IMG/VR virus record: IMGVR_UViG_3300038415_000126
Coordinates: 1 to 64,000 of that record
Strand: one strand, 5' to 3'
DNA from: a virus
Length of the DNA: 64,000 bases
The first letter of the stretch is position 1. Every line of letters begins with the position of its first letter. Positions 4,768 to 32,540 of this stretch are shown one piece after another. The position numbers were made by a program, and so were the translations under genes. Below the pieces are notes generated by a model. It was not told the DNA's origin and made no database searches. It saw only the letters and a program-made list of their open reading frames with translations.

Positions 4768-4796
4768 GTATTACGCGCGAGGAGGAATAATCTCAA
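4768..4796 (-). promoter_or_regulatory. Class 1 phage promoter-like motif TTGAGA-N17-TAATAC
   Basis: GTTGAGATTATTCCTCCTCGCGCGTAATAC, 5 nt upstream of ATG 4762. Confidence 0.7.
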
Positions 4797-5187
4797 CCAC
4801 TTTATTCCAGTTGTCCCACTCCTCCTCGGTCACTACCAGAGCCCCAACCGGCAATGGGTTATTTCCTTCCCCATGGAGGTTCTCGCCATTGAGGCGGGTG
4901 ATGTGGCCTTCCGGATGGCGGATAAAGACCATGCATCCCGCGTGCGAAGACTTGCCCTGCCAACCATTCTTCTTTTCCGACCAAACGACCAAGTCGTTAT
5001 GTTCCAATGGTTTACCGCAAGTGGCGCAGCAGTAAGGGTGGATCTTGACCCGTCCGAGCTTGGGGTACTCGACATGGTCCTCCATATTCGACTTGGGCTT
5101 CTTTTTTATCTGGTGGCGACCGCAGACAATAGCTATGGTCAAGGCCACCAAAAATGAGATGATGAAACCAACTGCTGGGTGGTTCAT
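4771..5187 (-). CDS. Membrane-anchored hypothetical protein with CxxC...HxxC
   Basis: N-terminal hydrophobic helix; CATC and HAGC. Confidence 0.65.
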   Translation of the reverse strand: MNHPAVGFIISFLVALTIAIVCGRHQIKKKPKSNMEDHVEYPKLGRVKIHPYCCATCGKPLEHNDLVVWSEKKNGWQGKSSHAGCMVFIRHPEGHITRLNGENLHGEGNNPLPVGALVVTEEEWDNWNKVVEIIPPRA

Positions 5188-6002
5188 GTCATAACCATGG
5201 TCAGGGGTTCTGGGGATACCCTGAAGTTGACTTGTTGTTCGTACTCGACGGGGAATGAGAGGAAGGGCCCGTCGAGGTACAGGATGCCGTCGCTGACCTT
5301 GGAGATGAGCTTGAAGCTCTTACCGCTTTGGAACCGGTTCAGAGTCTTCCCAGGGGCTCTGTAGGGTTCCCTGATGATGGCTTGAAGCTCCTTGGTCTCA
5401 GGTGGGTAGCTGGTCCCGCCTGCTGACCTCATGGCGCCGGTCGAGCCCGCTCCGGTCCCCACCCAGATCCCAGAGCACCCGTAGCGATCCTGTCCCAGGA
5501 TGAATTTGGTCATAGCGGCAGGGCAAACATGGGAGAATAGGGCCTCATTGAGGACTCGACTGCAGACTACCTCTCCGTCAATTGAGACCTGGAGTCGGGT
5601 GATCTTTTTGACTGAACTCTTGAAGTTCTTGGCAAGAAGAATTCCCCTGACGTCCTCTGCGCGAGCTGCGCAGAGGTAGCCAACCGAGGTCTTGGGATCT
5701 GAGTTGACTCCAAGGATGGGGATGCCCGCGGGGACCTTGTGGGAAGCCGCGAGGAGCGTCCCGTCACCGCCGACCGTGATGACAACCCTAGTATCCTCGG
5801 GAACCTTAAACTCCTTCTCTGGACCGTTGACCACTACGGCTCGGTACTTGAGTTTGCTCAGCTCGTGGAGGACCCTATCAACCGACTTCGAATGCCTTTG
5901 GTGTACCGCAAACGCGCGTTTTGCAGCCGAGGAGTCAGCCACATTGAACTTGAGCTGATCCCAAGTACTACGTTTTAGAATGACAATTGCCTGCTCTCTC
6001 AT
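5184..6002 (-). CDS. nadK: NAD(+) kinase
   Basis: GGDGTLL signature, LNE motif, GTGAGSTGA glycine-rich motif, LDG. Confidence 0.9.
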   Translation of the reverse strand: MREQAIVILKRSTWDQLKFNVADSSAAKRAFAVHQRHSKSVDRVLHELSKLKYRAVVVNGPEKEFKVPEDTRVVITVGGDGTLLAASHKVPAGIPILGVNSDPKTSVGYLCAARAEDVRGILLAKNFKSSVKKITRLQVSIDGEVVCSRVLNEALFSHVCPAAMTKFILGQDRYGCSGIWVGTGAGSTGAMRSAGGTSYPPETKELQAIIREPYRAPGKTLNRFQSGKSFKLISKVSDGILYLDGPFLSFPVEYEQQVNFRVSPEPLTMVMT

Positions 6003-6194
6003 CGGGGAATCCTCAAATTAGCTCTAAGTACTGCTTGTACAACTTCCAGCGGAGCAATACCAGTGGAGATTCTCAAACTACCGCTTTCGAGGATCTCGAC
6101 AATGCAGTCGTACTCCCAGGTGAATAAGCAGGCAGCCCAGGTCCCACCAACCTGACGGACTTGCCACTCCCACCCAAGGGGAAGTGAGGGGAAC

Positions 6195-6422
6195 TCAGTG
6201 GGTGTGCTCTTCGACGTATCTTTGGATGCAGACGATTGAGCATGCGAAGCGGAGGCCGTCGTCTCCCGGCGGGTAGGTGTCCGTGACGAACCAGCCCGGT
6301 GGGACTTGGCTGCAGGACACCCATTCGTTCCAGACAAGGAGCGACGGGACTTCAGCTTTCTTCCTGCATTGACAGCATTCAATCGTGGTACGGTCAAGTT
6401 CGGTCTCCTTGGTATCGGCCAT
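6195..6422 (-). CDS. Small zinc-binding hypothetical protein
   Basis: CCQC...ACSIVC; GGTGTA motif 10 nt upstream. Confidence 0.55.
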   Translation of the reverse strand: MADTKETELDRTTIECCQCRKKAEVPSLLVWNEWVSCSQVPPGWFVTDTYPPGDDGLRFACSIVCIQRYVEEHTH

Positions 6423-6437
6423 GCAAGGTAGCTACAC

Positions 6438-6653
6438 CTACGCTACCTTGCACCCTACACTGGACCCTGTTACTTGAACCGCTCTCCGGAAGAACATCTC
6501 ATCGACCACTCGTGTCGGATACGGGTACTTGCCCTTGATTAGTTCCAGATGAAAGTATGGCTCTTCAGCCTGGATGGTGATGTTCGCCAGCTTCCAAACC
6601 CGAGGGCCCTCCTTCCAGTGAGTACCTAGTTCCTTGTCAGTGAGTCCGAACAT
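6438..6653 (-). CDS. Hypothetical protein
   Basis: ATG 5 nt after the class 1 promoter variant at 6659-6687. Confidence 0.55.
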   Translation of the reverse strand: MFGLTDKELGTHWKEGPRVWKLANITIQAEEPYFHLELIKGKYPYPTRVVDEMFFRRAVQVTGSSVGCKVA

Positions 6654-6858
6654 GATCAGTATCTCGCGCGAGAAACTGGTTTCTCAACCAGTTTCTTTAG
6701 CTTCTTCCTCAACGCGGCTCGCGCTCGATTGGCGACCCATCCAATCAATCCAATAGTGGTATTATCACTACTATTGAAACGGTCATAGGCTCTCAGGCAG
6801 GATAGACATAGACCACCAGGGACTCTAGCCGGACCTTCACAGATGATGCAGGGATAGG

Positions 6859-9442: not shown

Positions 9443-10093
9443 CTATATAACCCAGGGTCTTTTGTACCGGCTAGGTCTGAGTATAGTACCGAGTGGTACT
9501 AGTCCTGAGCACCCCTTAGCGTCGAACAGCACCCAACATGGTTTACCGGCGACGAGGGCAGTGAACTTGCGAAGAGCCGGAGAGTAGAATGGTGCTGGAT
9601 CCTTTGAATGCCATCGTTGGCAGGTGGAACACGTTGTGGGTCCGGGAAGACCAGTCCACCCAAAAAAGTCAGGTACCTGCTCGGCGTTCAAGAAGCCCAG
9701 GGCTTCTTTTGAGTAGGCCATCGCAATGTCGACTGTTGTTCTTGCACCCTTACGACACCACAGGTCAATCAGGTCAAGGGTCCCTTCGTAACTTGGACCC
9801 ATGAAGGACTTTGAGTAGCTGACCAAGTTCATCGCTAGTGAGTTGACCATATCGACGATATCCTTCTCAAATCCTGAGATACGGATACGAGGTAGTGTGA
9901 CCTCCAAACTATTCACCTCTCGTGTACACTCAGCTATTCCAGATTCAGACCAGTTAGTAACCCCCAGAAGGCTATGACCTATCTGCCCGTCAGCCCTGAC
10001 TAGGAACACGTCATCTTTGATCTCAACCCTCCTAAGTAACTTGAGTGGATCGTTCCCTTTCCTGGTGAGCGCCCATAACCGAGTGTTCATCAA
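9443..10093 (-). CDS. Hypothetical protein with C-terminal tag
   Basis: Ends RPSRYKRPWVI. Confidence 0.75.
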   Translation of the reverse strand: MMNTRLWALTRKGNDPLKLLRRVEIKDDVFLVRADGQIGHSLLGVTNWSESGIAECTREVNSLEVTLPRIRISGFEKDIVDMVNSLAMNLVSYSKSFMGPSYEGTLDLIDLWCRKGARTTVDIAMAYSKEALGFLNAEQVPDFFGWTGLPGPTTCSTCQRWHSKDPAPFYSPALRKFTALVAGKPCWVLFDAKGCSGLVPLGTILRPSRYKRPWVI

Positions 10094-27345: not shown

Positions 27346-27435
27346 GTTTTTATGTTGCAAGCCCAAGTAACTCGTGAGATAGTTCATGAATCACGGAACA
27401 AAGTAGAAAACTGGATCAGATAGTGTATTATTAGG

Positions 27436-27600
27436 GCTCCTCCATAGCCCTTAAGGCGAGGCTATCATGCACTCAGCTAAGTCTGACCCAGAGTGGTTGG
27501 ACCCCATACATTCTCACAATCTGGTCCAGTTTTCTGCTTTGATCCACTGAATATATGGGTTGTGGAGGTGGAGTTGGAGTGAGTAAGTGGCATGTCGTCA
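27436..27600 (+). ncRNA. Candidate tracrRNA / natural single-guide RNA of the Cas12f-like locus
   Basis: GCTCCTCCA (27436-44) complements the repeat 3' ends; ATAGCC/GGCTAT stem; anti-repeat CCCCATACATTC (27502-13); repeat-like GAATATATGGGTTGTGGAGG (27549-68); TATTAT -10-like box at 27426. Confidence 0.6.
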
Positions 27601-27665: not shown

Positions 27666-29639
27666 ATGCGTATGCCTAGTACAAAGCCAAAAGCTGAAGT
27701 AGACCCCGTTGTAGCCGCCACTTCACTATGGTTAGTTGAGGAACTCAGGAATCGAGGGGTTGAAAAGCCTTATGTCAACAAGACCTCTAAGGGGTGGCAG
27801 GTCAAGGATGGGAACAAGCTCATTGGTCGCCCTCGCTCTGAATGGATGGATGAGCGATCACAAGACGCTATTGAGTGTTGTTTCCGTATCCCAGGATCAG
27901 TGACAATCGAACTCGAACCTTGGAGCTGGCATGCTAAAACAGAGGGCGAAGCCGCTGAAGGTCAGCAAGTAGCCCACCAGAAATGGGTGAAGAAGCACAA
28001 GAAAAAGAAGCCTAAGAAGGGCGCAGAGGCGACAGCTACTCAAGATGAAGCCAAGCTCAAGGAGGAGCCGGTAGATCACTACCCAGAACTATTCGAGGTG
28101 ATCCAGCTGGTCACTAAAGGGCAACGAGCTGTAGTCAGATCACTCCTCAAAGAGGAAGGTAGAGAGCCATACCCAGTTTTGGCTGAGGCTATTGGCGCTA
28201 CGGTAGAGCGCGTCCAACTCAAGACCTCGAAGGGCAAGAAGGCGAAAGAGGGTGCTACTCGTAACAAGTTAAGTGACAACCCTCTTTCGGGGAGCTTGAC
28301 CGCTTTTGCTTCTAAACAAGCCTCAGATAAGATGAGGACCTGGCTTAAGAAAGAGGCGGAACAATCTCCACCTTGGTTCAAGGCTAAGAGCCTCCCATTA
28401 CCTAGAGAGTGCTTTGACTTAGTGCTATGCGGACGCGATCTCGATGTAATCCTTACTCTACGAGCAGCTGTCAATGGTCGGTCACCCCACTTGACAGGAA
28501 AAGCTGTTGCAAGAGGCAACTCTCAATGGTCAACCCTTCACAAGATCCTGAAGCCGGGAAGTGAGTACACGATAGGGGGTGCTCGCCTGGTATGGGATGA
28601 TGACCGTTATCGGTTCCAACTTAAGGTGTCCTACTCCTACCCAAGACCAAGCACAAAAGAAGGCGTGGACACTCTTGTAGTCTGCCCTGGTCTGGATTCA
28701 ATCCTACGCCTGTGGGCTAGTAGTGGTCGCGGTGTTGGTAGGGTAGACGACAGCAAGTCTTACTTTGCTCATCGGCTTCAATTCGAAGGTCGGCGGACAC
28801 CTCATAAGCCCACAGCCAAGTCATTGAAACAGCTCAAGGCGTTAGGGAAAGATCCCAACGAGGTATTTATCTACAATGTGAACCAAGATACCCTTCTTCA
28901 GAAGAAGTTGGCTTTCGACGCCAGACGGGGTAGTATGGCTCAACACCTGAACCATCAAGGACGTGGGGCTCGTGGCCACGGTCGAAATCGATTTTTGAGG
29001 ATTAAAACGGAGGTCTCAGAAAAGGAGGCCTTGTTCACCAAGAGCTATTGTGAGCAACAAGCGTCGAGAGTTGCCAAGGTGGCGAGCGGGATGATCTTGA
29101 CTCACGAAGGTTGGGTTCAGAATCGAGAGCCCTATGCTGAGGTGTTACTTCACGATTGGAGCACCCACCTCGCGCATCACCCGGACAAGCGCATTGAGAA
29201 GATCCTAAGACAGTTCCCAAGTGCACTACTCCGTGAGAAGATTATCTGGGCCTTGACCAAGGCTGGAATCAACTACCGAGTACTCAAGGTTGGAACTTCC
29301 CTATGCCCATCTTGCTTGAAAGGGAAGATGGAATTTGACAAGATCTCCGGTAACCACGTTTGCAGCCACGATGACTGTAAACAAGAAGCTCCAAAGGAAT
29401 TCTTGACCGCTTGGGCCACCTTCAGAGCTGGAACGCCGAGCAAGGTGTATGACTACGATGCGGTGAGTGAAAGCTTCCGGAAGGTGATCCGAGACAGCAG
29501 AGCCCGTAAGAATCAAACAACTAACCTGGAAACTTCCGAATCGGAAGCACCTTCAATTGAAGTCCAAGCACCTACCAGAAAGACCACTAGAGATGCAAAC
29601 GCAACTAGAAGAGGTACGTCTCAAGAATCTCATCCGTGA
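27666..29639 (+). CDS. cas12f: Cas12f/TnpB-like type V effector with apparently inactivated RuvC (dCas12f-like)
   Basis: PPWFK..LP; YTIGGARLV...FQLKVSYSYP (WED); GRGARGHGR Cas12f1 hallmark; LREKIIWALTKAGI; CPSC/CxxxxC zinc finger; catalytic positions read C340, H496, E578; adjacent CRISPR array. Confidence 0.85.
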   Translation: MRMPSTKPKAEVDPVVAATSLWLVEELRNRGVEKPYVNKTSKGWQVKDGNKLIGRPRSEWMDERSQDAIECCFRIPGSVTIELEPWSWHAKTEGEAAEGQQVAHQKWVKKHKKKKPKKGAEATATQDEAKLKEEPVDHYPELFEVIQLVTKGQRAVVRSLLKEEGREPYPVLAEAIGATVERVQLKTSKGKKAKEGATRNKLSDNPLSGSLTAFASKQASDKMRTWLKKEAEQSPPWFKAKSLPLPRECFDLVLCGRDLDVILTLRAAVNGRSPHLTGKAVARGNSQWSTLHKILKPGSEYTIGGARLVWDDDRYRFQLKVSYSYPRPSTKEGVDTLVVCPGLDSILRLWASSGRGVGRVDDSKSYFAHRLQFEGRRTPHKPTAKSLKQLKALGKDPNEVFIYNVNQDTLLQKKLAFDARRGSMAQHLNHQGRGARGHGRNRFLRIKTEVSEKEALFTKSYCEQQASRVAKVASGMILTHEGWVQNREPYAEVLLHDWSTHLAHHPDKRIEKILRQFPSALLREKIIWALTKAGINYRVLKVGTSLCPSCLKGKMEFDKISGNHVCSHDDCKQEAPKEFLTAWATFRAGTPSKVYDYDAVSESFRKVIRDSRARKNQTTNLETSESEAPSIEVQAPTRKTTRDANATRRGTSQESHP

Positions 29640-30294
29640 CAGCAAAGCTCCAGAGCTGGTGGAGGGAGAGAGTTGGGCTATAGTCCTAAAGGAGCTAACT
29701 CGCCTAAAGGTAGCTGCTGAGGTCAATGAGGAGTGTATTGTACTCTACCTCTACCAATTGGAGATCGAGGATTCCATTTGGCGGAATGAGTCGGATAGCA
29801 CCAAGTGGAGTTTTGCAACCTTCCTCCGGAAACGTGACATCTACGACCCAACACGATATGGGGACTGCAAGGTAGCTCTCGCACGAACCCCATTGAACGT
29901 GCTGAAGAAGATCGGTCTGAGCGCGGCGGTTCTTGTCACAAAGAAGCTTCAGACGAAGTTCCACACAAAAGGTTTCGACAAGGTAGTTGAGTACATGACT
30001 ACCAACAAGAAGTCCTTCTTGTTGAGGTTGGAGGTTACCCGTCTGATAACCGAAGTTGGGGAAGCCAACCCGGGCTCAATGACGAAGAGGGTAAGGGTAG
30101 ATTCCAGAACTACGGCCAAGGAAGAACTAGTCCAAGCGAACGAGACCATCAAGAAGCTCAAGAAGAGGATTGCGTCCTTGGAGAGTAAGCTCGAAATCTC
30201 TGGGGATAAGAACCGGAAGCTCCAAATTCTGGTTGATGGGTTTAGGTCGGCTAGACGAAGTGGTCCTAAGAAGAGTGGTTCGAGAGCTGCCTAG
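29593..30294 (+). CDS. Unknown basic helical protein with C-terminal coiled coil, overlapping the cas12f-like 3' end
   Basis: ATG at 29593 (the track starts at TTG 29557); lies between the effector and the array leader. Confidence 0.75.
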   Translation: MQTQLEEVRLKNLIRDSKAPELVEGESWAIVLKELTRLKVAAEVNEECIVLYLYQLEIEDSIWRNESDSTKWSFATFLRKRDIYDPTRYGDCKVALARTPLNVLKKIGLSAAVLVTKKLQTKFHTKGFDKVVEYMTTNKKSFLLRLEVTRLITEVGEANPGSMTKRVRVDSRTTAKEELVQANETIKKLKKRIASLESKLEISGDKNRKLQILVDGFRSARRSGPKKSGSRAA

Positions 30295-30552
30295 TAACAT
30301 ATCTTGCGAGCGGTTCGGTGATAGACTAGACCCTGTACCCGCTCGCATTTCACTCTCTTCCACTAGAGAGCCTGTTCTCTGAAAATCTAGCATCTGATTC
30401 CCACGTAGTCAGAAGTAACCAGGTGGTTTGTATCACCTATATGGTTCACTGATCTACCGGGAGTCAGGTAGGACTCGTGCTGAGACGGTTATGCAGACCC
30501 TCTCGCATGTAGTATTGTAAGTGTATAGAACCACTGGGGATCTCATACTGAG
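30295..30552 (+). promoter_or_regulatory. CRISPR leader with multiple hairpins and partial anti-repeat
   Basis: Non-coding interval next to the non-degenerate array end; five inverted repeats; GAACCACTGGGG at 30528-39. Confidence 0.6.
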
Positions 30553-31447
30553 GCCTCAGTGGTTCATTGAGTGTATGGGGATTGGAGCTACCCGAGCACG
30601 CCGTCCCACTTGGCCTCAGTGGTTCATTGAGTGTATGGGGATTGGAGCTAGTTAGGACACGATTCGACGGGGTCGGGGCAGACACGCCTCAGTGGTTCAT
30701 TGAGTGTATGGGGATTGGAGCCGCAACAGCACTTGGCAATGGCGGCTTGAACTGTGCCTCAGTGGTTCATTGAGTGTATGGGGATTGGAGCCGGCTGATC
30801 CACCTTACAGGTAGCCTCGGGGCTCCTGAGCCTCAGTGGTTCATTGAGTGTATGGGGATTGGAGCGGGGTTCGAGAGCGCGAGGAACTCGGGAACTCGTA
30901 TCGCCTCAGTGGTTCATTGAGTGTATGGGGATTGGAGCTGGTTGTTCCGCATTATCGGTGCGACCGGGTCAGGCAAGCCTCAGTGGTTCATTGAGTGTAT
31001 GGGGATTGGAGCTGATTGAACAGGACCACCATGATATTAGAGCCAACGCCTCAGTGGTTCATTGAGTGTATGGGGATTGGAGCCAGATGAAATAGGCGAA
31101 TGGCCCCACCGAGGTGAAGCCAGCCTCAGTGGTTCATTGAGTGTATGGGGATTGGAGCGCAACTGGCTAGTGATTTCCTCGTCGCATTCGGGATGCCTCA
31201 GTGGTTCATTGAGTGTATGGGGATTGGAGCTCAACGATGACGATGAGTTTCGCATACGAGTGATCGTGCCTCAGTGGTTCATTGAGTGTATGGGGATTGG
31301 AGCTCCTCCGAAAGTCACCTCGATTGAGAAGGCAATCGTGGCCTCAGTGGTTCATTGAGTGTATGGGGATTGGAGCTCGTACTGTACCCTGCAGACAGCG
31401 ACATCCGTTGGGCCTCAGTGGTTCATTGAGTGTATGGGGATTGGAGC
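30553..31447 (+). CRISPR. CRISPR array A: 13 identical 36-nt repeats GCCTCAGTGGTTCATTGAGTGTATGGGGATTGGAGC, 12 spacers
   Basis: Repeat starts 30553, 30613, 30686, 30756, 30830, 30903, 30977, 31048, 31123, 31195, 31268, 31341, 31412; spacers 34-39 nt except the first (24 nt). Confidence 0.99.
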
Positions 31448-31482
31448 GATACCGTGGGCATCACAATGGAAGTGCTTCGGAC

Positions 31483-32016
31483 GTGAGAACCTAGGATCAA
31501 GTGTATGGGTGTTGGAGGTCAGGGTGGATGGCCGTCGACGCCACTGCCATGTTTCAACCGATGATTGAATGTATGGGTGTTGGAGGGAGGTTGAGCTACG
31601 CGCGTTAGTTCCGTCGCTAGAATCACGCGGGAACCTAGAATCAAATGTATGGGTGTTGGGGAAATGTCGTTGGTCAGCAATGCCCGGAGGTCTGAGACGT
31701 GGAAACCTGTAATAAAGTGTATGGGTGTTGGAGGAATCCACTGTTTGAACCTATTAAAGGCGCAGCGGATGTTACTAAATGGTCGAGTGTATGGGTGTTG
31801 GAGCACGTACAAGAAAGCTTGGACGACGCGGCGTAGAATGTGGGAACCTGGGATCAATTGTGAGCGTTGGAGGGTGATCATGCCTCTGGTCCAACCTCGA
31901 CCTATCAGGGTGGGAACCTAGAATCAAGTGTATGGGTATTGGAGCACCTCCGTCTCAGGAATAGCTGATGAAACTGCGACGTGGGAACCTAGAATCAAAT
32001 GTATGGGTATTGGAGA
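31483..32016 (+). CRISPR. CRISPR array B: 8 divergent repeats, consensus about GTGGGAACCTAGAATCAAGTGTATGGGTGTTGGAGG, in register with array A
   Basis: Repeat starts about 31483, 31551, 31627, 31699, 31769, 31840, 31910, 31981; unique 32-40-nt spacers; joined to array A by a 35-nt spacer. Confidence 0.9.
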
Positions 32017-32071
32017 CGGTCGGCTCCCGGAAGATGTCCGGTGGTAACTCTCTTATACTTGAGGTGCAATA

Positions 32072-32308
32072 GTGTCGAATCTCTTGGTCATCCAGCGTGT
32101 AGCCGCCAGGGCCATCCAGGCAGGTCTTGGACGGGACAAGTGCTTCTACTGTCACGCGCCTCTCTACACGAAGGGTGGCAAGTGCAAGAACTGTGGTGCT
32201 CCTGCAACTCCCATCCAGGACCCGCCGTCACCGGCGGAAGAAAAGAAGGTCCGGGACGATATCAAGCACAAGCCCCGACGGGACTCACCCGCCCAGTTCT
32301 TCAAGTAG
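32072..32308 (+). CDS. Small zinc-ribbon protein with N-terminal RVAAR motif
   Basis: QRVAARA; CFYC...CKNC. Confidence 0.6.
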   Translation: MSNLLVIQRVAARAIQAGLGRDKCFYCHAPLYTKGGKCKNCGAPATPIQDPPSPAEEKKVRDDIKHKPRRDSPAQFFK

Positions 32309-32540
32309 GGTCTTTACCCTTACGCGCCATGTTCTGAAGCTCATGGCGGACGTCTAGGATGTCCAAGGGCTTCTCGGAACGCTCACCTACAGGTTCGGCT
32401 CCGAGAGCTTTGGCGAGGTCAGCAGGGTCAATCATACGCTCCCTGGTGAGCTTCTTTCGAGTGAGTTGATCGACCTCTTCCTTCTCACCAAGCTCTTGAA
32501 AGAGGTCACTGAGAGTTTCATCACTTACATGCTTGGTCAT
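32301..32540 (-). CDS. Hypothetical protein
   Basis: ORF in the minus-strand cluster. Confidence 0.55.
   Translation of the reverse strand: MTKHVSDETLSDLFQELGEKEEVDQLTRKKLTRERMIDPADLAKALGAEPVGERSEKPLDILDVRHELQNMARKGKDPT

Follow-up and report, generated by a model that had tools for sequence, protein, structure and literature searches.

A phage CRISPR array that probably combines two repeat families around a common tracrRNA-pairing handle

How does a CRISPR array come to change one half of its repeat partway along its length and keep the other half? The question is raised by an array in a 64,000-nt stretch of viral DNA (hereafter the window), which covers the first 64 kb of an IMG/VR virus record 98.5 kb long. 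The record is rated ~19% complete and is therefore a fragment of a very large phage. An earlier note made from the letters alone had described 13 identical repeats that run on at the same period into eight divergent units, and the coordinates and register of the repeats bear this description out. The array falls into two parts, and the 3′ part of the repeat that both have in common is called the handle below.

30553-31447, + strand: part A, 13 identical repeats of 36 nt separated by 12 spacers.
31483-32016, + strand: part B, eight units, six of which (B1, B3, B4, B6, B7 and B8) have the 5′ module of the B family; B2 is a chimera of A-like and B-like sequence, and B5 has decayed heavily.

The repeats of part A start at 30553, 30613, 30686 and so on up to 31412, and their spacers measure 34-39 nt, with the exception of spacer 1 (24 nt). 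Part B continues in register with part A: its units start at 31483, 31551, 31627, 31699, 31769, 31840, 31910 and 31981, the last one ends at 32016, and its spacers are 32-40 nt long. The whole is a regular array of 21 units, with spacer lengths of 24-40 nt and each spacer unique within the array. An 18-mer of the handle occurs 18 times at three or fewer mismatches, against 0.07 occurrences expected. A Logan contig from sequencing run X1, possibly the source sample, matches 31411-32400 without any difference and so covers the final A repeat, the A-to-B junction and part B in full, and a contig from run X3, which belongs to another study, matches 31720-31960 without any difference. Since these contigs agree and a k-mer misjoin would need longer exact words in common than A and B have, the composite of A and B is real and not an assembly artefact. 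Standard array callers would likely miss part B, as had been predicted; TRF rows end at 31303, and the repeat finder put A and B in separate families. Searches returned no Pfam family for the open reading frames (ORFs) that overlap the array and no Rfam match in the window.

Formal alignment of the eight B units to repeat A placed 94 mismatches in the 144 cells of positions 1-18 and 28 in the 144 cells of positions 19-36 (Fisher p = 2.5e-15; column permutation p = 0.007). Uniform divergence along the repeat, set beforehand as the outcome that would speak against a hybrid array, is thus not what the alignment revealed. The 5′ halves of part B had been called unrelated. Their six-unit consensus is indeed unrelated to A (p = 0.79), but the halves are not all unrelated to each other: six of the eight (B1, B3, B4, B6, B7 and B8) form one family, each lying 0-4 mismatches from the 5′ module GTGGGAACCTAGAATCAA, and the 5′ halves of B7 and B8 are identical. 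The three 5′ 16-mers that the note had quoted come from B7/B8, B2 and B5. Unit B2 is similar to A (p = 0.004) as well as to B (p = 0.015), and B5 has significant likeness to neither. The consensus RTGTATGGG.RTTGGAG given for the kept part is exact in six of the eight units; it fails in B3, which has GGGG for GGAG, and in B6, which has a 2-nt deletion and about four changes. Partial copies of the B module also stand at the ends of the spacers before B3 (31616-31626, GCTAGAATCAC) and B6 (31834-31839, TAGAAT), which would fit a partial tandem duplication of the module. Far from the array, TGGAACCTAGAACC at 51296-51309 matches the core of the B module at 12 of 14 positions, likely by chance.

Part B could in principle consist of old A repeats that degenerated at the trailer end, which is common in CRISPR arrays. 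The divergent units do lie at the leader-distal end, trailer-end decay is progressive in the arrays of relatives (where it proceeds by indels), B2 is significantly A-like, and B5 and B6 are damaged. Decaying A repeats should, however, yield scattered changes that are not shared, whereas six units have in common a coherent 5′ module without relation to A and stay within 0-4 mismatches of their own consensus; part B does not have the scattered point changes from its own repeat that mark ordinary degenerate repeats. The terminal repeat of L123, a distant relative of the locus, shows the reverse pattern, which is the ordinary one, in that its 3′ half is lost; this contrast makes the retention of the handle in part B notable, and is no proof of function. 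Neutral decay is already contradicted for the six B units, and as an account of part B we regard it as very improbable. Within the B family, divergence is about equal in the two halves (~8% in the 5′ half and ~12% in the handle, by hand count from the alignment). This equal divergence, together with a six-unit 5′ module unrelated to A, argues that the contrast lies between two repeat families with a common handle and is not a decay gradient.

The note had further held that the conserved half is exactly the part complementary to a candidate tracrRNA. This claim gained in strength, as the candidate proved to be a structured RNA that is present in distant relatives and has two covarying contacts with the repeat. 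Its elements lie upstream of the array:

27389-27556, + strand: structured tracrRNA, in which three hairpins and an unpaired anti-repeat are enclosed by a long closing stem (RNAalifold, covariance model).
27439-27444, + strand: loop of tracrRNA hairpin 1, CCTCCA, pairing with repeat positions 31-36 (TGGAGC/G).
27502-27513, + strand: unpaired anti-repeat CCCCATACATTC, complementary to repeat positions 17-28, with 12 bp to A and 10 bp to B.
27546-27568, + strand: solitary repeat-like handle directly 3′ of the tracrRNA closing stem, resembling repeat positions 14-36 (p = 0.0006).

RNAalifold folded the tracrRNA with 53 pairs, eight of which have compensatory changes, at a z-score of -5.2, and a covariance model built from three loci detected homologues that adjoin the effector gene in L120 and L123, at 79 and 43 bits respectively. 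Across four divergent loci, the two contact segments covary with the 3′ half of the local repeat. In L120 the loop CTCCAC stands opposite GTGGAG and the anti-repeat CCTCTGCATCC opposite GGATGCGGAGG; in L123 the loop CCTTCGATC stands opposite GATCGAAGG and the anti-repeat CCGCCAAG opposite TTTGGCGG. The anti-repeat covaries with the local repeat in L012 (a nearer relative), L120 and L123, and the diagonal of its energy matrix is strongest in three of four loci. More generally, the cross-matrix of duplex energies is strongest on its diagonal in most cases for both contact segments; for the 5′ half of the repeat, the diagonal is not favored. Window-wide duplex scans revealed that complementarity by itself is unexceptional in 64 kb, so the case for the tracrRNA rests on position, conserved fold and covariation. 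That both contacts change together with the local repeat, that the diagonal energies prevail and that the 5′ half has no such preference argue that repeat positions 17-36 are the tracrRNA-pairing handle across this effector family. An anti-repeat that pairs with the repeat, as a type V-F-like array should have, is thus present. RNAalifold also paired a leader segment (30390-30411) with the 3′ half of the repeat; given the far stronger evidence for the upstream tracrRNA, we regard this pairing as tentative and possibly a folding artefact. Seven of the eight B units keep both contacts, with 10 bp plus 5-6 bp, and the predicted duplex with the tracrRNA is weaker for the B handle (-14.5 kcal/mol) than for the A handle (-21.3 kcal/mol).

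The solitary handle covaries with the local repeat in L012 (2126-2146) and is absent after the tracrRNA in L120 and L123. Together, the tracrRNA, the solitary handle and a guide-like tail could make up a natural single guide just upstream of the effector gene. L012 has further solitary repeat units, one at the start of the leader (4789-4824) and one 2.7 kb downstream of the array (9723-9760), the latter with GGAGC at its end, immediately followed by ATG codons. The tracrRNA homologue of L120 (4998-5154) lies inside the called effector ORF (4995-6722), so that either the true effector start is further downstream or RNA and coding sequence overlap.

Repeat positions 1-16 form a separate module, which has no partner in the upstream tracrRNA. 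In part A, a partner is found instead at the end of the leader:

30295-30552, + strand: conserved leader (~80% column identity across four loci).
30528-30539, + strand: leader end (GAACCACTGGGG), 12 nt before a 13-nt loop, pairing with A repeat positions 2-13.

The hairpin between the leader end and repeat 1 has 12 bp (-26.9 kcal/mol, z = -3.5) and includes one compensatory pair in L012. Three independent relatives for which DNA is available carry the comparison of arrays, L010 and L011 (effectors 95% identical to that of the window) and L012 (71%), and all of them have A-like 5′ halves. In L012 the A 5′ half is identical at 17 of 19 positions and is better conserved than the handle. Conservation in all relatives and pairing with the leader end argue that the A 5′ half is not free of constraint. 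The suggestion that only the handle is under selection is not supported by these results, nor by the B family, inside which both halves diverge alike. For the B module, no complement at four or fewer mismatches was found elsewhere in the 98.5 kb, apart from one 9-nt match in the leader. This match (30398-30406, TTCCCACGT) complements ACGTGGGAA perfectly, the sequence with which four B units begin if the two bases preceding them are counted in; it was noticed post hoc, with ~0.011 such matches expected in the leader by chance. Its counterpart reads TTCCCATGT in L010 and L011 and TTCTCGCGT in L012, and it overlaps the leader stretch that RNAalifold pairs with the repeat handle. It would be conceivable that the two halves of the repeat evolve and are exchanged independently, the handle with the tracrRNA and the 5′ module with its leader partner, such that one locus serves old and new families and B guides work without the second contact; we consider this elaboration unlikely.

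The genes upstream of the leader place the array in a Cas12f-like system:

27666-29639, + strand: effector, 657 aa, with a Cas12f fold (AlphaFold2 and Foldseek).
29557-30294, + strand: partner ORF, ~245 aa with an uncertain start codon, overlapping the 3′ end of the effector gene; homologue in L120.

Sequence-only matches of the effector to Cas12f are weak. Its AlphaFold2 model (pLDDT 81, from an alignment of 51 homologues) matched AsCas12f best by Foldseek (8j12, E = 5e-19), with AsCas12f, SpCas12f1 and OsCas12f at 5e-19 to 1e-13, and the predicted structure is thus that of a Cas12f-fold effector. The RuvC triad (Asp, Glu, Asp) is not intact, and the placement of the RuvC-I Asp is uncertain: the column of the RuvC-II Glu holds His or Asn in seven of seven family members and Glu in 32 of 44 distant homologues, and the RuvC-III column holds Glu, Asp, Gly or Thr in the family versus Asp in 31 of 44 distant homologues. 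The effector is therefore probably not a normal nuclease and may bind DNA without cutting it. The partner ORF matches no Pfam family and has a homologue in the same overlapping position in L120 (6688-7419; 29% identity, E = 3e-13), where the effector family is ~36% identical. The remark that the window lacks adaptation genes was confirmed and holds across the record, as cas1, cas2 and cas4 were all absent from its 98.5 kb (~19% complete) in searches whose positive controls worked.

Where, then, does part B come from? Its 5′ half is like that of the L120 repeat (p = 0.0026; A, p = 0.25) and like that of the Un1Cas12f1 repeat (bioRxiv 10.1101/2022.10.20.513037; p = 0.016; A, p = 0.62). Since it is B, and not A, that resembles these two 5′ halves, B looks like the usual module of the family and A like an innovation of this sub-clade. 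In L010 and L011 the last unit consists of a foreign 5′ half and a kept handle, and resembles B only weakly (p = 0.08). Part B and the trailer units of relatives showed no significant orthology, apart from one spacer segment:

31805-31827, + strand: first 23 nt of the spacer after B5, identical to L010 6267-6289 (a trailer-side spacer).

In L010 this common segment follows a decayed A-type repeat and is followed by an A-type 5′ half with a ruined handle, and on a contig from run X4 it precedes an A-type repeat. Replacement of the 5′ half in place at orthologous units was dropped as a candidate: B6, spacer 17, spacer 19 and the terminal unit of relatives gave p = 0.02 to 0.49 against their L010 counterparts, none of which counted as significant. 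A contig from run X2 joins the A 5′ half to the B7 handle and continues with spacer 20 and B8, which is the product expected of a crossover inside the common handle. Pattern searches of IMG/VR found no donor array that has B-type repeats and the TGTATGGG handle; the handle pattern matched only the contig of a known relative, and the B 5′ pattern gave single chance matches only. The flanks of L012 are only ~69% identical to those of the window, and the B7 and B8 5′ halves are identical to each other, so the B units cannot be neutral relics that predate the split from L012. Either they were recently imported from an unsampled relative with the same handle, or they were kept by selection.

At the other end of the array, the leader-side spacers are entirely different between phages whose effectors are 95% identical, and acquisition or exchange must therefore be ongoing. 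Seven leader-side repeats of L011 (3535-4232) carry two variant bases (GACTCAG, GGGTATTGG) and its older units have the form found in the window, which looks like a variant of the repeat spreading inward from the leader side. The spacers themselves matched no target in 50,697 phage records, in the phage's own genome or in the fetched loci; one plasmid match was at chance level (E = 0.4), and the 22-nt core of spacer 15 had no exact match in IMG/VR. A 168-nt contig of run X2, from another peat sample, holds 33 nt of the B2-B3 spacer (31594-31626) with one mismatch and between different flanks. The two flanks, of which 30 nt each are visible, are similar to one another, and the preceding one ends in GTTGAAAC, like a class 1 CRISPR repeat. 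This contig may represent a host spacer taken from the array of this phage, or a shared target.

The earlier note had proposed that the 5′ half is read by Cas1-Cas2 and was swapped to fit the adaptation machinery of different hosts. The lack of cas1, cas2 and cas4 in the 98.5-kb record is what such a dependence on hosts would predict, and leader-side spacers that differ wholly at 95% effector identity imply ongoing acquisition by machinery encoded elsewhere. The unseen part of a record that is 19% complete may, however, hold adaptation genes. Moreover, exact-match searches of IMG/VR and of 185,579 prokaryotes (one genome per species) found no array with either 5′ half as its repeat, and thus no host array from which one could have been borrowed. 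The search of both repeat types for hosts, which the note had recommended, named none: the B 18-mer had no match, and the A pattern had four single genome matches against ~17 estimated by chance, with no array at the two loci that were examined (L115 and L118). The A 5′ half is the same even where the effector is only 71% identical, and it covaries with the leader end, and the B module resembles repeats of the same effector family and is thus the family's own rather than borrowed from a host. The proposal is not supported by these data, and we consider host matching an improbable cause of the change of module.

A promoter function for the B module has even less in its favor. In such a scheme the module would carry a -10 box (TAGAAT) and each unit would be transcribed alone, as in type II-C arrays. 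A promoter scan marked TAGAAT in B7 and B8, B3 also has TAGAAT, and most other B units keep a hexamer ending in AT at this place (TAGGAT, TGTAAT, GATGAT). Promoter-like sites nevertheless number four, against 3.7 expected from shuffled sequence, and the -35 box would fall in variable spacer sequence. A transcript starting ~7 nt past the box would begin at positions 21-25 and lose most of the anti-repeat pairing, and the similar module of L120 has GAGAAC there, which is no -10-like box. We therefore give transcription of single B units very little credence.

A more serious alternative is that part B is a dead fossil, in which the handles are conserved only as the block is young or recently imported and which yields no functional guides. 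Divergence in the B family is uniform over both halves, B pairs more weakly with the anti-repeat and is without the leader-end partner that A has, and B6 is clearly broken. On the other hand, the handle positions that vary (19, 28, 29 and 36) leave the tracrRNA pairing of 10 bp plus 5-6 bp in place, and the identity of part B in the X3 contig from the second study (31720-31960) implies that it is stably kept. In the B family the handle (~12% divergence) is no better conserved than the 5′ module (~8%), so that selection on the B handles is no more than a possibility. We rate the fossil reading as quite possible, if short of probable. That the B units really give guides is likewise plausible, as seven of the eight keep both contacts; we stop short of calling it likely.

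Together, these data suggest a single array of a phage-borne, tracrRNA-dependent, Cas12f-like type V system that is read from left to right, starting at a conserved leader. Its 36-nt repeat has two separately evolving parts, a guide handle (positions 17-36) that pairs with two tracrRNA segments and a separate module (positions 1-16). Part A carries the typical module of the sub-clade, which pairs with the leader end, and part B is a trailer-side block in which six units carry another, mutually similar module, like those of canonical Cas12f and of relatives further away. Recombination inside the common handle joins and reshuffles the two families, as one variant contig shows. We infer that part B is either an older version of the repeat kept at the trailer or a block that came in from a close relative, so far unsampled, whose handle is the same, and that seven of its eight units, which keep both tracrRNA contacts, could be loaded as guides if the transcript reaches them. 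As a whole, this explanation of a composite array of two families with a common tracrRNA-pairing handle seems to us probable, with appreciable room for doubt.

The locus is like type V-F (Cas12f/Cas14) systems in its Cas12f-fold effector (here predicted), in a guide made of a repeat-derived handle followed by the spacer, and in a tracrRNA that contacts the repeat at two places. In engineered guides of Un1Cas12f1, the 5′ end of the repeat is dispensable and can be shortened. The sequence of the Un1Cas12f1 single guide has the repeat 5′ end paired with the 3′ end of the tracrRNA (bioRxiv 10.1101/2022.10.20.513037). By contrast, the tracrRNA described here lies upstream of the effector gene, has a closing stem of ~35 bp and contacts only the 3′ half of the repeat; the effector has another residue in place of the RuvC-II Glu, its gene is overlapped by a conserved partner ORF, and the locus belongs to a huge phage whose 98.5 kb of available sequence contain no adaptation genes. 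Part B shares with degenerate terminal repeats its place at the leader-distal end of the array. It differs from them in comprising eight units rather than one or two, in the coherent alternative 5′ module that six of them share, and in keeping the half that adjoins the guided spacer, where L123 shows the usual loss of the 3′ half.

A further parallel is offered by dCas12f proteins, nuclease-dead Cas12f homologues used for RNA-guided transcription control (PMC12259090). The effector studied here is likewise related to Cas12f, has a damaged RuvC site and adjoins a CRISPR array, and one cluster of dCas12f described in that paper lies near arrays and is proposed there to act in repression. The dCas12f proteins are bacterial and shorter, work mostly with single chimeric guides and no tracrRNA, and are paired with sigma-E or HTH genes (PMC12259090). 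Unlike these, the present effector is phage-borne and has a clear tracrRNA, ~20 spacers and an unrelated partner ORF. The solitary degenerate handle upstream of the effector gene (27546-27568) recalls standalone repeat-like regulatory RNAs in cas loci (bioRxiv 10.1101/2023.03.03.530964), and matters for the array only as a further case in which nothing but the handle has been retained. A literature search for hybrid or chimeric repeat arrays, or for these repeat sequences, found nothing relevant. The array is a variant of known array behavior in a little-studied phage Cas12f-like system.

For this family, the array amounts to a natural dissection of a type V repeat, in which comparison alone separates 20 nt needed by the tracrRNA and effector from 16 nt that can be replaced wholesale, and this would aid the design of minimal guides for its compact Cas12f-like effectors. 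Array callers that demand identity over the whole repeat would shorten such arrays and lose their oldest spacers. For the arrays of related phages, the common handle offers a route of recombination, and if the B units are active, guide production in this system would be independent of the 5′ module.
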